Below, piece by piece: positions 22,562-53,445 of a stretch of DNA of 64,000 nt (position 1 is its first letter; every line of letters starts with the position of its first letter). Source of the DNA: an uncultured Actinomycetes bacterium (lineage in GTDB: Bacteria > Actinomycetota > Thermoleophilia > Gaiellales > JAICJC01); contig CAVRSB010000004.1 in assembly GCA_963723785.1 (NCBI GenBank), positions 31,662 through 95,661 of the forward strand. Direction: 5' to 3'. The position numbers and the translations under genes were made by a program. The notes beneath the pieces were generated by a model. It was not told where the DNA came from and ran no database searches. It saw nothing but the letters and a program-made list of their open reading frames with translations.

Positions 22562-23440
22562 ATGGGCTCCCAAATACGAGTGGCAGTCATCGGACTAATA
22601 ACGACCTGCGCGTTGTTTTTGGCGATCGCCTCGCCGGCCTCCGCAGCACCACGATTGAAGCATGTGTGGGTGGTCGTTCTCGAGAACCACAGCACCGGCC
22701 AGATCCTGGGGAATCCGCAGGCGCCGTACCTGAACAAGCTGGCCCGCCGAAACGGCCTGGCAACCCGGTACTACAGCCTCGACCATCCCAGTCTTCCAAA
22801 CTACCTTGCGTTGATCTCAGGATCCACGCAGGGGTGCGGATCGGACAGCTGCAAGCCGGGGTACGGCGGCCCGCTCTTGACGCGCCAACTGCGACATCGC
22901 CACCTGGCTTGGCGGGGATATTTCCAGGGACTGCCGCACGCGGGATACATCGGTGGCGACAAAGGCTCGTACGTCCGGCACCACAACCCGTTCGCGTACT
23001 TCAAGTCGATCACCAACTCTCACCACGCCCGGCGAAACATCCGCCCGTTGACGTCACTACGGCGCAGCCTGCGCCATCCGCCGGCGTTCAGCCTCGTGGT
23101 TCCCGACAATCAGCACAACATGCATACCGGCAGCATTGCCAAGTCCGACAAATGGCTCCGCCACTGGATCCCGAAGATCATCCATTCGCGCAAGTTCAGG
23201 CATCAAAGTGCGCTCTTCATCACCTTTGACGAGGGCCACAACGACTCCAGCGGCTGTTGCCTGCGCGGCGTTCACGGGGGCCGCACGGTGCTGATCGCCA
23301 TCACCTCCCACCGGCATCGCTCGAGACTGCATAAACCTCGCACCGCATACTCGCTGCTGCGCACCATCGAGAGCGGATTCCGGCTCAAGCCGATCGCGCA
23401 CGCCTCCCGCGTCCGCCCGCTCAACGCCTTCTGGCGGTGA
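22562..23440 (+). CDS. secreted phosphoesterase family protein (PF04185-like, single domain)
   Basis: ORF 22562..23440. Signal peptide, HVWVVVLENHS...HPSLPNYLALISG...HHNPFAYF. The stop TGA lies inside palindrome copy A. Confidence 0.85.
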   Translation: MGSQIRVAVIGLITTCALFLAIASPASAAPRLKHVWVVVLENHSTGQILGNPQAPYLNKLARRNGLATRYYSLDHPSLPNYLALISGSTQGCGSDSCKPGYGGPLLTRQLRHRHLAWRGYFQGLPHAGYIGGDKGSYVRHHNPFAYFKSITNSHHARRNIRPLTSLRRSLRHPPAFSLVVPDNQHNMHTGSIAKSDKWLRHWIPKIIHSRKFRHQSALFITFDEGHNDSSGCCLRGVHGGRTVLIAITSHRHRSRLHKPRTAYSLLRTIESGFRLKPIAHASRVRPLNAFWR

Positions 23441-23469
23441 ATAATTGGTGCCTGGCACCAATTATTCAC
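23437..23469. repeat. palindromic repeat copy A (33-bp type 1)
   Basis: GTGAATAATTGGTGCC-T-GGCACCAATTATTCAC, perfect 16-bp arms. Confidence 0.95.
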
Positions 23470-23490
23470 CGTACGCCGATCAACGACTGA

Positions 23491-23515
23491 CGCCCTGAGG
23501 CGCGGCCAGCCTCAG
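23491..23515. repeat. secondary hairpin module downstream of copy A
   Basis: CGCCCTGAGGCGC GGCCAGCCTCAG: 7-bp stem CTGAGGC/GCCTCAG with a 7-nt loop. Both halves recur around 51652-51781. Confidence 0.7.
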
Positions 23516-23642
23516 CCGTAACGAGTTCGGGACGGTCCCTCTGACAGACTGAACCATCGACAGGATCCCGACCAATGCCGGTGGATCGATTCAAGGCGGA
23601 CGCCTGGGCGCAGTTGCGTGGGCCGGCCTGGCCGCGACACTG

Positions 23643-49537: not shown

Positions 49538-50113
49538 TTATGCGAGCCCGCCCACAATTTTCGTTTCATCGAGGGCTGCGACGTACGGCAGGCTGCGGTA
49601 GCGCTCGGCGTAATCCAGCCCGTATCCGATCGCGAAACGGTTGGGGATCTCGAACCCGACGTAGCGGCATTCGATGTCTGCAACCCGGCGGTCGGGCTTG
49701 GTCAGAAGCGCACACACCTCGACCGATGCCGGGTTGCGGGCCTCCAGATTGCGCAGCAGGTACGAGAGCGTCAGGCCGGAGTCGACGATGTCTTCGATCA
49801 CAACCACATTGCGCCCCTCGATGCTGGCATCGAGATCCTTGAGGATCCGCACCACCCCGGATGAGTCGGTGCTGTTGCCGTAGCTGGAGACGGCCATGAA
49901 GTCGATCTCGCAGGGGATCGTGAGGCGTCGGATCAGGTCGGCCATGAAGAACACCGCGCCCTTCAGCACTCCGATCAGCAGCAGGTCGGTATCGGCGTAG
50001 TCACGCGAGATCTCGGCACCGAGCTCGGCGACGCGGGCCTCGAGCGCTTCCTCTGTGACCAGCACCTCGGCGATCAAACTCTCCTGGCCGGCGTGCTCGA
50101 GGTCTGCGCTCAT
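49538..50113 (-). CDS. hpt: hypoxanthine phosphoribosyltransferase
   Basis: ORF 49538..50113. PRPP-binding [13 protein letters not shown]. Confidence 0.9.
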
Positions 50114-51055
50114 CTCGAGTGAGGATACCGCGTCGGCGCAGTGAAGCTGAGGGTTCGGCGGTCGCGCACGGCTTCGAGATCGCGTGCCAGCGATAACCGC
50201 TCGACGCCGTCCCCGCGCGTCGCCAGCTGTTCCAGCCTGCCGGTCAGCTCGCGGGGCAGCCGCAGCGGGCGCCCGGCGGCGCGCTCGGCGGCGGCCCGCA
50301 GTACCACCACCCGCAGCCCGCGGGGCAGCTGTGAGAGCGAGTCGAGGTCGAGCTGGTCGGTCACGTGCTCCTCGGCCAGCTCGCTCAGCAGGTCGTCCAG
50401 TTCGGCCAGCAGCTCAGCCGTGCGGGCCAGGTTGACCTCGGCCCCGGGATGCACCCGACGAAGTGCGGGCATCACCTCGTGCCGGATCAGGTTGCGGCGA
50501 TGGAGCGTGTCCCGGTTGGTGGCGTCGACCCGCGGCTCCAGCCCGCGCTGCATCGCACCACGCCCGCGTCTCGCCGGCGGTCAGGCACAGCAGCGGGCGC
50601 ACCAGGTCGCCGTCGCGGGGGCGCATCGCGGCCGCCGCCCGGGGCCCGGACGACGACGCCAGCCGATAGAGCACCGTCTCGGCCTGATCGGACACCGTGT
50701 GCCCGGTCGTGATCACTCTGCCCGCGGCGTACTCGCGGGCGGCGCGGTAGCGGGCCTCGCGGGCGCGGGCTTCCAGATTGCCGCCGGGCGGGATCTCCAC
50801 GTTGACCACCGCCGCCCCCAACTCGGCGCAGAACTCGGCGTCCGCATGTCCCTCTTGGCCTCGCAGCCCGTGCTCGACGTGGAGCGCGTCGACCGGGTAT
50901 CCGAGCTCGCTCATCAGCGTCCACAGGCACAGCGAGTCGGCGCCGCCCGACACCAGCGCGACCAGTTCCTGTCCGGGTTCGAGCAGCCGACCGCCGGCGA
51001 TGTAGTCGGCGACTCGCTCAGCCAGGGCGGCTGTCACGAAGTGCCCGGGTGGCAT
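50110..51055 (-). pseudogene. tilS: tRNA(Ile)-lysidine synthase, frame interrupted once
   Basis: ORF 50414..51127 trimmed to ATG 51055 (PP-loop SGGADS) plus ORF 50110..50553. Junction near 50555. ATGA overlap with hpt. Confidence 0.85.
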
Positions 51056-51566
51056 AGGTCGTGGCCAGCTCGACGTACCGAGCGTGGGCGGTCTCGGCGG
51101 CGTCTTCGTCGCCCGCGCGGTGGGCACGCTCGATCTGGATCAGCAGGTCGTTGAGGCGCTCTTCCAGCCGCAGCTCCAGCACCTGCTCACCCGACAGCTC
51201 CTCCCCGCGCCCGGTCGCACGCAGCCCGCGTGCCTGCCACACGACGGCCAACTCGGCCAGCTTCGGCTCGGCGTTGAGCACGTCGAAGCCGCGAATCGCG
51301 AACGGGCGAAGCGCGTCTGCATCGAAGCGTGGCACCGCGATCTCACCGTCCGAGCCGCCCGGCTGGAAGCGGCCGCCGCACTCACACGCCGCCAACAGCG
51401 GTGCGATCTCGGATTCCACCCCGGCGCTGCCCAGTCGAAACCCTTCGGCGCCGTGATCGGCCAGCCGCACCAGCCCGATCTCGGCCGACAGCGGGGCCAG
51501 ATCGGCGGCGGCCCCGCAATCGCTGCAGCGCCATGGATCGGTGCGGGCGGTGGTGATCGAACTCAC
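51018..51566 (-). CDS. hypothetical protein (possible Cys-pair zinc-ribbon, helical C-terminus)
   Basis: ORF 51018..51566, high GC3. CSDCG and CECGG pairs. No family recognised. Confidence 0.5.
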   Translation of the reverse strand: MSSITTARTDPWRCSDCGAAADLAPLSAEIGLVRLADHGAEGFRLGSAGVESEIAPLLAACECGGRFQPGGSDGEIAVPRFDADALRPFAIRGFDVLNAEPKLAELAVVWQARGLRATGRGEELSGEQVLELRLEERLNDLLIQIERAHRAGDEDAAETAHARYVELATTYATRALRDSRPG

Positions 51567-51588
51567 GCCGTGAAGCGTAGAGCAGCCG

Positions 51589-51621
51589 GTGAATAATTGG
51601 TGCCTGGCACCAATTATTCAC
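51589..51621. repeat. palindromic repeat copy H (33-bp type 1, perfect)
   Basis: Identical to copies A and G. Lies in the 211-nt gap between the hydrolase gene and the 51018 gene. Confidence 0.95.
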
Positions 51622-51651
51622 TCCGACGCCCAGGTGGTGAGTCACGACAGG

Positions 51652-51781
51652 CGCCCTGAGGCGCAGGCCGTTGGGTCTGTGGCAAGGATCGAGCCGCGAG
51701 CGGAGCGCAGGCGTGGCAAAGCCACGGCGAGCACCGCACGCGGCGTGGGACGCCGCCACAGACCCAACGGGCCAGCCTCAG
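51652..51781. repeat. secondary hairpin module downstream of copy H, carrying a nested insertion
   Basis: CGCCCTGAGGCGC (51652-51664) and GGCCAGCCTCAG (51770-51781) match the copy-A module but are separated by about 105 nt that form a long extended stem. Confidence 0.7.
51670..51768. repeat. 99-bp MITE-like or hairpin insertion bounded by 14-bp perfect inverted repeats
   Basis: GTTGGGTCTGTGGC (51670-51683) and GCCACAGACCCAAC (51755-51768), flanked by GGCC on both sides. The interior holds a smaller hairpin, CGTGGC-AAA-GCCACG. Confidence 0.6.
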
Positions 51782-52578
51782 AGGAAGTCGGAGACGGCGA
51801 CGCCGAAGGAGTATGGGGCTTCGATCATAGGCATGTGGCCGACGCCGGGAAGCACCACTTCCTCGGCGCCGAGCAGGTCGGCGAACTCGGGGCCGTTGTC
51901 CCAGCCGGACTGGTCGTGCTCGCCCCACACCACCAGGCAGGGCACGTCCACGTCAGCGGCGATCGTGCGCAAGTCGAGATCTTCGAGCGCAGGCAGGGCT
52001 GACGGCACCACCGGCGCAGCCCGGGCCGCGCCTCGCAGCAGTGACCGGGCCTGATCCGGCTCCAAGCCGTCCAGGTCGTTCATGCCGACGAACCAGCCGA
52101 AGATCACCCTTCGCGGCCACCGCGAACGCGATGCGGCGGCTTCCCACAACCGCTCGCTGCGGGCCAGCACCTTGTGCACCGGCATCACCGCCCGCGCCCG
52201 CCGAATGTGCAGCGGCGTGATTCCCACGGGCGAGGCCAGCACCAGCGCCGACACCGGCCGCGCGGCCGCCCAGCAGACTGCGATCGGCACGCCGAACGAG
52301 TGACCCACAATCGCCGGGTTCTCGGCCTCGAGCTGATCGGCGGCGTCGGCCAGCACCGTCACCAGCCCGTCGAACGTGAACGGGTCCAGCGCCTCGCTGT
52401 CGCCGTGACCGGGGACGTCGAAGGCGATTACCCGGTGTCGCCGCGACAGGCGCTCGGCGAACGGTGCCCAGTAATCGAGCGACCCGGTGAGCCCATGGAC
52501 CAGCACCACCGGAGGCCCGGACCCCCACTCGGTGACGTTGATTCGCAGCCCGTCGACCGAGAGTGTACGGTTCTTCAC
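51778..52578 (-). CDS. alpha/beta hydrolase
   Basis: ORF 51778..52818 trimmed to GTG 52578. VVLVHGL oxyanion region, GHSFG nucleophile elbow, C-terminal GHMP. Confidence 0.8.
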   Translation of the reverse strand: MKNRTLSVDGLRINVTEWGSGPPVVLVHGLTGSLDYWAPFAERLSRRHRVIAFDVPGHGDSEALDPFTFDGLVTVLADAADQLEAENPAIVGHSFGVPIAVCWAAARPVSALVLASPVGITPLHIRRARAVMPVHKVLARSERLWEAAASRSRWPRRVIFGWFVGMNDLDGLEPDQARSLLRGAARAAPVVPSALPALEDLDLRTIAADVDVPCLVVWGEHDQSGWDNGPEFADLLGAEEVVLPGVGHMPMIEAPYSFGVAVSDFL

Positions 52579-53445
52579 ATGTCGGAAGGTAGCACCGAGA
52601 CCGCTGACGAGTACCGGGCGCGCAGCGCCCAGAACTGGGAAGAAGCAGCCGGTTCGTGGGAGCAGAAGCGCGAGTACACCCGCAAGACCTTCCAGCCGTT
52701 GACCGAGTGGCTGCGAGCCCAGACGATGCTCGCCCCGGGCAAGCAGGTGCTGGAGTTGGCGGCCGGTCCCGGCGACACCGCCATCGAACTGGCGCCGGCG
52801 ATCGTCCCCGGCGGCCACTACGTGGCGACCGATCGGGCCGCGGGGATGGTTGCGGCTGCGACCCGCTCAGCCGCCGCCGCAGGACTCACCGACGTGATCG
52901 AATGCCGGGTTGTCGACGCCGAGGCGATCGACGTGGACGACGACAGCTTCGACGCGGTCGTGTGCCGGTTCGGGCTGATGCTGATACCCGACCAGGCCGC
53001 GGTTCTCAGCCAGACGCAGCGGGTCTTGAAGCCCGGTGGGGTGTGCGGATTTGTGGTGTGGGGCGACGAAGACCGAAATCCGTGGGCCACCCGTCTTTGG
53101 GGAGTGCTGGAGCGGCTGGTCGACATTCCCGCATCACCGCCCGGGTCGCCGGGGATGTTCTCACTGGCCGACCGCACACACCTGTCGCAGCTGATAGCCG
53201 GAGCCGGGCTCACGCAGACGGCGATGGAGGCGATCGACATCGAGTTCGAGTACTCGTCGTTCAACGAGTACTGGGAGACGAACTCGGCGCTGGCCGGCGG
53301 CCTTGCGCGGCTGCTGCCCACGCTGACCCAGGCCAAGCGCGATCACCTGATCGAGAGCGTGCGCGACGGGATGGCCGAATTCCGTCTCGCCGACGGGCGC
53401 TACCGCGTCACCGGCCAGGCTCTCTGCGTCGCGGCCGCCCGATAG
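52579..53445 (+). CDS. class I SAM-dependent methyltransferase
   Basis: ORF 52174..53445 trimmed to ATG 52579 (MSEGSTETADEY). Motif I VLELAAGPGD, LKPGG. Confidence 0.8.
   Translation: MSEGSTETADEYRARSAQNWEEAAGSWEQKREYTRKTFQPLTEWLRAQTMLAPGKQVLELAAGPGDTAIELAPAIVPGGHYVATDRAAGMVAAATRSAAAAGLTDVIECRVVDAEAIDVDDDSFDAVVCRFGLMLIPDQAAVLSQTQRVLKPGGVCGFVVWGDEDRNPWATRLWGVLERLVDIPASPPGSPGMFSLADRTHLSQLIAGAGLTQTAMEAIDIEFEYSSFNEYWETNSALAGGLARLLPTLTQAKRDHLIESVRDGMAEFRLADGRYRVTGQALCVAAAR

Follow-up and report, generated by a model that had tools for sequence, protein, structure and literature searches.

Two copies of a 33-bp palindrome in the window, A and H, are each followed by a second hairpin, and the question raised by the H locus is why the two halves of this second hairpin are contiguous after A and about 105 nt apart after H. 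The window is the whole stretch of DNA that was analyzed, 64,000 nt long; the assembly holding it, G000, has a size of 1.78 Mb and is 54% complete. An earlier note on this DNA proposed that a 99-bp element with 14-bp inverted repeats had entered the loop of a small original hairpin, CGCCCTGAGGCGC/GGCCAGCCTCAG, and had possibly duplicated the 4-bp sequence GGCC. The explanation that we favour, and consider very probably correct, is that positions 51622-51781 are one full-length copy of a non-coding hairpin repeat dispersed in one family of the Gaiellales (Thermoleophilia, Actinomycetota), that the short forms are deletion derivatives of it, and that the repeat is selfish, non-autonomous DNA. 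The H locus comprises the following features.

51589-51621, no strand assigned: REP-type 33-bp palindrome H (GTGAATAATTGGTGCCTGGCACCAATTATTCAC), with AATT arms, lying 5' of the hairpin unit in the composite (read from the sequence)
51622-51651, plus strand: 5' leader ("spacer") of the unit, 30 nt, missing at this site from the six sister genomes (copy comparison)
51652-51781, plus strand: full-length long hairpin element, 130 nt (fold, covariance model, alignment and covariation)
51652-51664, plus strand: 5' half CGCCCTGAGGCGC, 30 nt past palindrome H
51670-51683, plus strand: 5' arm of helix 2, GTTGGGTCTGTGGC, the left "terminal inverted repeat" of the earlier note; varies between copies and covaries
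51684-51754, plus strand: conserved imperfect core, AAGGATCGAGCSGCGAGCGGAGCGSAGGCGTGG-loop-CCACGKYGAGCACCGCACGCSGCGTGGGACGCC, with fixed bulges and two fixed G.U pairs
51755-51768, plus strand: 3' arm of helix 2, GCCACAGACCCAAC, the right "terminal inverted repeat"; varies and covaries
51770-51781, plus strand: 3' half GGCCAGCCTCAG, 105 nt from the 5' half
51778-51780, minus strand: TGA stop codon of the hydrolase, from the reverse complement of CCTCAG, within the last six bases of the element
51778-52818, minus strand: alpha/beta-hydrolase ORF (Pfam Abhydrolase_1)

Upon re-reading the sequence, the two halves, their distances from the palindromes (21 nt after A, 30 nt after H) and their separation at H were found as described, and GTTGGGTCTGTGGC and GCCACAGACCCAAC of the H copy are indeed perfect 14-bp inverted repeats. 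GGCC also stands on both sides (51666-51669 and 51770-51773), but two additional bases, A at 51665 and G at 51769, make the duplication imperfect, a point against nested insertion. The H hairpin folds far above chance. For 51648-51785 a single rod of about 50 pairs was obtained, with -95.1 kcal/mol vs -61.3 +/- 3.6 in 200 shuffles, none of which folded equally well (z = -9.4); the reverse strand reached -90.7 kcal/mol (z = -8.7). The rod consists of an outer helix (CTGAGGC/GCCTCAG), a variable helix 2, an invariant imperfect core and an apical loop, and the overlap of this long hairpin with the hydrolase stop codon, already reported in the earlier note, was confirmed.

The locus was compared with those of six sister genomes (G001-G006), the genus comparison thus covering seven genomes. 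In G001, G002 and G004 the palindrome directly abuts the hydrolase end (TTATTCAC followed by AAGAAGTC), and in G003, G005 and G006 both the palindrome and the hairpin are missing. Against all six sisters the indel is exactly 51622-51781, a segment that takes in the leader, the two halves and the core, and since this whole segment is missing in the sisters it represents one indel. The empty site that the earlier note had envisaged in relatives does exist, but it is empty of the two halves as well, which is at odds with an insertion into the loop of a resident small hairpin. With the direction of the indel taken by parsimony over the seven related genomes, with no rooted tree, the H hairpin appears to be a mobile unit gained recently and in this lineage alone, by which the last codon and the stop codon of the hydrolase were rewritten: the sisters read GAC TTC TTG TGA, with the stop provided by the REP arm, and G000 reads GAC TTC CTC TGA. 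This corrects the annotation of the locus, in which the hairpin should be considered neither a regulator of the hydrolase nor the product of a two-step nested insertion. The unit sits between two co-directional genes, where relatives have approximately 10-50 nt, and it is dispensable there because six relatives are without it. Its flanks at H carry no target duplication. The palindrome at H shows fully compensated arm variants, AATT in G000, AACGG in G004 and AAAAGG in G001 and G002. As read from these sequences, arm variants at orthologous sites speak for an exchange of whole REPs rather than for point drift, and those at H suggest that the composite of REP, leader and hairpin took the place of the REP already there, or recombined at it, in one piece. 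In the same part of the window, a tilS-like gene on the minus strand (50110-51127) appears to be divided between two ORFs that overlap, 50414-51127 and 50110-50553, which is a frameshift or an assembly error.

That the element is a MITE-like structured repeat linked to the palindromes, one of the identities suggested in the earlier note, is borne out by further copies both in G000 and in its relatives. A covariance model (R1), built on 41 diverse copies, matched the H copy at G000:C4:83310-83448 (window 51649-51787) with 141.6 bits. The content of G000 is of five full-length copies, one half copy and three short copies, those other than H being:

C20:44729-44866, full-length
C8:30851-30989, full-length
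C3:33412-33551, full-length
C3:251236-251372, full-length
C9:38102-38185, 3' half copy
C4:55152-55176, short form (that of A)
C14:6064-6089, short form
C3:110219-110248, short form

All five full-length copies of G000 have a REP-type palindrome on their 5' side and none on their 3' side, which gives the unit a fixed polarity; the same holds for the sister-genome loci that were read. Between copies the leader sequence seen at H is partly conserved (...GACGC...TCACGACAGGCGCC), and its homologue in other genera is a leader that reads ...GCGTCGTCAC.... Presence of the full-length form varies from site to site. The C3:33 locus is filled in G000 only, G002 having a 12-nt 3' remnant, GACCAGCCTCGG; the C8 locus is filled in G000 and G004; the C20 locus is filled in G000, G001 and G005, with an internal deletion between GCGGCG repeats in G004 and a terminal remnant, TCCGAACCC, in G002. 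At gene ends the unit, of about 130 nt, is acquired or lost in one piece; in this genus it is attached in fixed polarity 3' of the 33-bp REP, in a composite that resembles a BIME mosaic. As a separate observation at C20 (G000:C20:44690-45020, L020; compared with L150 and L034), the shell-type copy of the sisters, a class of copies described below, has outer inverted repeats GGGTTCGGGTTGGGGTGCGGTTC/GAACCGCACCCCAACCCGAACCC, and in G000 a genus-type copy is fused to a 3' remnant of the shell (...CCTCAG joined to CCGCAACAGAACCGCACC...). This fusion suggests, from its sequence, replacement by recombination in the common core.

The short form at A has the following parts.

23437-23469, no strand assigned: REP-type palindrome A, AATT variant, carrying the TGA stop of an upstream plus-strand ORF (22562-23440)
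23470-23515, plus strand: decayed copy made up of a 5' leader (23470-23490) and the short form CGCCCTGAGGCGC joined to GGCCAGCCTCAG, without helix 2 and without core

The halves are contiguous here (CGCCCTGAGGCGC at 23491-23503 and GGCCAGCCTCAG at 23504-23515, 21 nt past palindrome A), and this arrangement, set against that of H, is what first speaks for a nested insertion. At A, G000 is 47 nt longer than G002, in which the palindrome abuts the right flank, and no relative has a long form at this site. The extra segment is bounded by a 5-bp direct repeat, CCGTA (23469-23473 and 23516-23520), which could, on its sequence, be either a 5-bp duplication or a deletion microhomology. A pattern search in the seven genomes located seven short forms in the genus, with five junction types:

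junction 1: GAGGCGC joined to GGCCAGCC
junction 2, three copies: GAGGC joined to CCAACGGGCC
junction 3: GAGGCGC joined to AACGGGCC
junction 4: ...AGGCCGTTGGG joined to CCAGCC
junction 5: ...AGGACGCGG joined to ACCAGCC

An insert would thus have different boundaries in each of five junction types, which counts against nested insertion. In addition, five of the seven short forms keep remnants of helix 2, the supposed terminal repeat, and since they hold pieces of the terminal repeats they cannot be empty targets. At the C3:110 locus, where one convergent gene has the end ...AACTGCTGA in both genomes, the form is long in G002 and short in G000, with CGCGG at either edge of the segment by which they differ. 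Like the perfect inverted repeats and the GGCC on each side of the separated part of H, these CGCGG boundaries would fit an insertion with target duplication. Both GGCC and CGCG, however, are self-complementary, and a stem in which they occur must for this reason show them as direct repeats on its two arms, at mirror positions; the apparent target duplication, being forced by the self-complementarity of the stem, is a by-product of it. Repeats of this kind are the classical substrate on which strand slippage removes the tip of a hairpin, as is established for unstable palindromes, and the GGCC and CGCGG "duplications", being stem motifs, favour such a deletion. A trap in the comparison of short and long forms is hereby illustrated: self-complementary stem motifs give deletion products that resemble target-site duplications. 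The short form of A and the six others would be, in our proposal, remnants left after deletion of the tip between short repeats on the two arms. The earlier note had itself considered that the long form might be ancestral and the A form an unrelated coincidence; the former part holds, but the A form is no coincidence, as it is most probably a deletion derivative. To the left of the C3:110 short form (G000:C3:109700-110200), G000 is about 400 nt longer than G002 and contains extra REP variants and a small ORF.

Conservation within the element was analyzed in an alignment of 41 copies with pairwise identity below 94%; a 5' motif of the copies has an internal look-alike in the element, GAGCGGAGCGCAGG. 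There are 56 invariant columns, concentrated in the core of about 70 nt, and the same bulges and the two fixed G.U pairs occur in every copy. In all genera GAGGCGCAGG and CCAGCC, two outer motifs contained in the halves, are kept together with the core. Variation within the family is greatest in helix 2, whose 5' arm reads GTTGGGTCTGTGGC, GTTGGGCCTGTGGC, GCGGTGGTTCTGGC and others, with compensating changes in the 3' arm; 12 of its 15 pairs have changed on both sides with pairing retained. Across the element as a whole, compensatory changes affect 15 pairs, the 12 of helix 2 included. Paired cells amount to 97.7%, vs 86.9% in column shuffles and 26-46% with slid partners, and the covariation score is 0.296 vs 0.108 in shuffles. 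The covariation across copies that the earlier note had suggested looking for was therefore found. The 14-bp repeats as conserved termini were not: the sequences taken for them differ from copy to copy, and covary. Only one strand keeps the pairing, as G.U cells number 161 and A.C cells 10 (79 vs 10 without the invariant pairs); within subfamilies G.U variants are common, and A.C variants are few, one or two cells at any position. Two other interpretations of the arms and core were tried and dropped. Mini-palindromes within each arm (CCGCGAGCGG and CCGCACGCGG) are not kept in the subfamily with a G/C swap, and the core has no start codon and shows changes that are compensatory, not codon-like, so that it was not taken as coding.

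The association of the halves with the core was also followed through the Gaiellales genomes. Both outer halves are present in 90 of the 95 core copies, the other five being mutated, truncated or tandemly rearranged, and none of the 95 has the core or the inner part in another context. An inner part that never occurs without the halves, and halves conserved with the core across genera, complete the evidence by which we regard the nested insertion as highly improbable.

The long hairpin is present in all six sisters; it also occurs in three further genera of their family, where the AT-armed palindrome is often missing (BLAST against 40 relatives). The R1 model was run on 32 same-family genomes, nine of which have the family, and on 88 genomes from four other families of the order, none of which does; several relatives yielded 10 to 22 matches each. 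A scan for an exact core 25-mer, in one genome per prokaryotic species, matched solely Gaiellales or "uncultured Actinomycetes" soil metagenome-assembled genomes. At H, Rfam (15) gave chance-level matches alone, up to E = 10, and at six copy-bearing loci it gave one tRNA and nothing else. A literature search for Gaiellales palindromic repeats found no paper on the element.

RAYT-like Y1_Tnp genes with palindromes on both sides were found in three sisters:

L185, G001:C13:93000-94400
L186, G002:C18:6200-7500
L187, G004:C24:595000-596500

The proteins are of about 230 aa, with Y1_Tnp and a C-terminal helix-turn-helix (Pfam PF01797, 27 bits with a cut-off of 23), and the palindrome arm type is identical on both flanks of each gene. 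The 33-bp palindromes are REPs by the defining property of flanking a RAYT gene. No RAYT gene was found in G000, whose assembly is 54% complete. Of 41 relatives, 33 have RAYT genes, some of them in genera that lack the hairpin, and since most genomes of the order have RAYT with or without the hairpin, its presence does not single it out as the mobilizer; as a correlate of the hairpin it was discarded as uninformative. Clustering of 334 flanking ORFs, within 1.5 kb of copies, gave only orthologous loci and no recurrent neighbouring protein or transposase. For the form found in this genus, any link between RAYT and the hairpin is putative. The repeat would be moved in trans, as selfish non-autonomous DNA, and the agent would most likely be RAYT (an HUH tyrosine transposase) or else a REP-targeted process acting on the single-stranded hairpin.

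The core found here lies, in other genera, within subfamily-specific terminal inverted repeats, to which we refer as shells, with termini GAGGTGGTTCCTTAATG... and GAACCCGTTTCAGAATG.... Reading by eye showed direct repeats, CCWGG or CTWAG, on both sides of shell copies, in many cases with a surrounding GGTGCCWGGCACC palindrome. Those with matching pentamers are:

L027, L078, L102, L106 and L107: CAGG/CAGG, CTGG/CTGG
L039, L074, L106 and L109: CTAAG/CTAAG, CTTAG/CTTAG

As far as can be judged from their sequence, these flanks indicate targeting of REP centres and a probable target duplication of 3-5 bp, which would be in keeping with transposition of the DDE type. The shells, with their terminal inverted repeats and direct repeats of 3-5 bp, suggest a DDE-type mode of transposition in those genera.

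A selfish DDE-type MITE does not need all the features described. The 70-nt core shared across genera and the pairing kept on one strand exceed the needs of a purely selfish element of this type, and leave room for a function as RNA or as single-stranded DNA. Among bacterial hairpin repeats it is unusual to find together a cross-genus core, a stem that is hypervariable yet paired, and pairing on one strand, and this trio would point to selection on the single-stranded form. One reading of this kind is that the invariant 70-nt core is a functional single-stranded module, either a structured RNA or an HUH-type recognition hairpin, which different shells have captured repeatedly. We consider it possible but doubtful. 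If it were true, the core would be a conserved cargo carried by several vehicles, namely REPs in this genus and at least two terminal-inverted-repeat subfamilies elsewhere, and not a decaying MITE.

Another proposal is that of a multicopy gene for a structured small RNA, in which a rod of about 110-130 nt would be transcribed from the pairing strand, the core being functional and the mobile shells secondary. The one-strand pairing (161 G.U vs 10 A.C cells) is in agreement with it, as are core bulges and loops that are invariant across genera and an orientation of the element that is independent of its neighbours (in tandem contexts, 17 antisense and 10 sense). No promoter-like site, however, was found at H. 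Upstream of the core, the sequence is wholly different between shells, with no shared -10-like motif. The lack of Rfam matches also weighs against a small-RNA gene, as does the free loss, truncation and internal deletion of copies between close relatives. Altogether we judge this proposal quite unlikely.

The position of the copies relative to genes bears on a third alternative. Flanking coding strands were assigned by codon-usage score for 91 non-redundant copies, and among those called on both sides 32 contexts are convergent, 27 tandem and two divergent; in the tandem ones the genes are antisense to the element in 17 and sense in 10. Gene 3' ends are strongly preferred, with no clear orientation rule. 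The terminal CCTCAG, by way of the TGA of its reverse complement, ends the convergent coding ORF in 11 of 18 non-redundant copies of the genus subtype. Stop codons supplied by the element, the excess of convergent over divergent contexts and a hairpin that is very stable in both orientations would all suit a device selected by the host at gene ends, which terminates transcription or protects mRNA 3' ends and for which mobility is the means of delivery. But the H unit lies between co-directional genes and, missing in six sisters, is not needed there; the U tract is absent; depletion from promoter regions is expected of any tolerated insertion; and the one-strand pairing is left unexplained, as mRNAs read the element both ways. 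Such a device is, in our estimate, unlikely. Intrinsic (Rho-independent) termination was rejected on its own account, the U tract being missing and 51300-52000 containing no terminator-like site on either strand. The best supported explanation is that of selfish, non-autonomous DNA tolerated at gene ends, because the unit is dispensable at H and its copies decay freely. At gene 3' ends a strong hairpin would do little harm, and it may incidentally act as a structure at the end of transcripts.

We compared the element with several known systems. With the REP, BIME and REPIN-RAYT systems of Escherichia coli and Pseudomonas fluorescens SBW25, the composite shares short extragenic palindromes, present in high copy number at gene ends, and a Y1 (HUH) RAYT gene flanked by palindromes. 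As in BIMEs, a palindrome is joined in fixed polarity to another repeated motif, and, as in REP systems, clean target duplications appear to be absent and turnover between close relatives is rapid. The long hairpin is, however, not two inverted 33-bp REPs as a REPIN would be; this candidate was rejected since the arms have no sequence in common with the 33-bp palindrome. Another difference from REP systems is the conservation of the hairpin core across genera, elsewhere without the genus REP.

Correia/NEMIS elements of Neisseria, ERIC/IRU of enterobacteria and RUP and BOX of Streptococcus pneumoniae are likewise non-coding dispersed repeats, of 100-180 nt, that form a single long intergenic hairpin, differ in presence between strains and have internally deleted variants beside full-length ones. 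In these elements the terminal inverted repeats are conserved and target duplications are regular (for example TA), whereas the element found at H, when set against MITEs that are hairpins over their whole length, has a hypervariable and covarying stem near its termini, an invariant centre and, in this genus, no regular duplication. Copy numbers, filled vs empty sites and the lack of an ORF show a multicopy, non-coding sequence with insertion polymorphism, as in MITEs; conserved terminal repeats of the classical MITE were not found, as the only constants in the genus are CTGAGGC/GCCTCAG and the outer repeats of other genera are specific to each subfamily.

Integron attC sites resemble the element in being imperfect hairpins whose structure and not sequence is conserved, in strand-specific folding, in fixed unpaired bases and in a location directly after ORF ends. 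The R''/R' core sites (RYYYAAC ... GTTRRRY) are, in contrast, not conserved here, and copies are scattered singly, without cassette arrays. An attC identity was discarded, as the GTTGGGT/ACCCAAC of H, whose likeness to the core sites had suggested it, is in reverse order and found in one subfamily only, with no arrays. TRIT motifs and other hairpin terminators without U tract of actinobacteria are, like the element, hairpin repeats rich in GC that lie at gene ends of a high-GC actinobacterium; the element differs from TRIT motifs by its much greater length (130 nt), its conserved imperfect core and its varying presence between sisters, and any role in termination is putative.

Two minor observations concern rearranged copies. 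In another genus (MFD06085.bin.2.163; L028, L030, L050, L058, L062 and L074), several copies have a 12-nt expansion of the apical loop that adds a mini-hairpin, CACCGGCCCGAAGGGCCGCGGAGG; with apical-loop expansions present as extra mini-hairpins, the tip of the rod tolerates true nested additions. At L111:2837-3079 there is a tandem partial duplication, in which two cores lie head to tail with one common arm.
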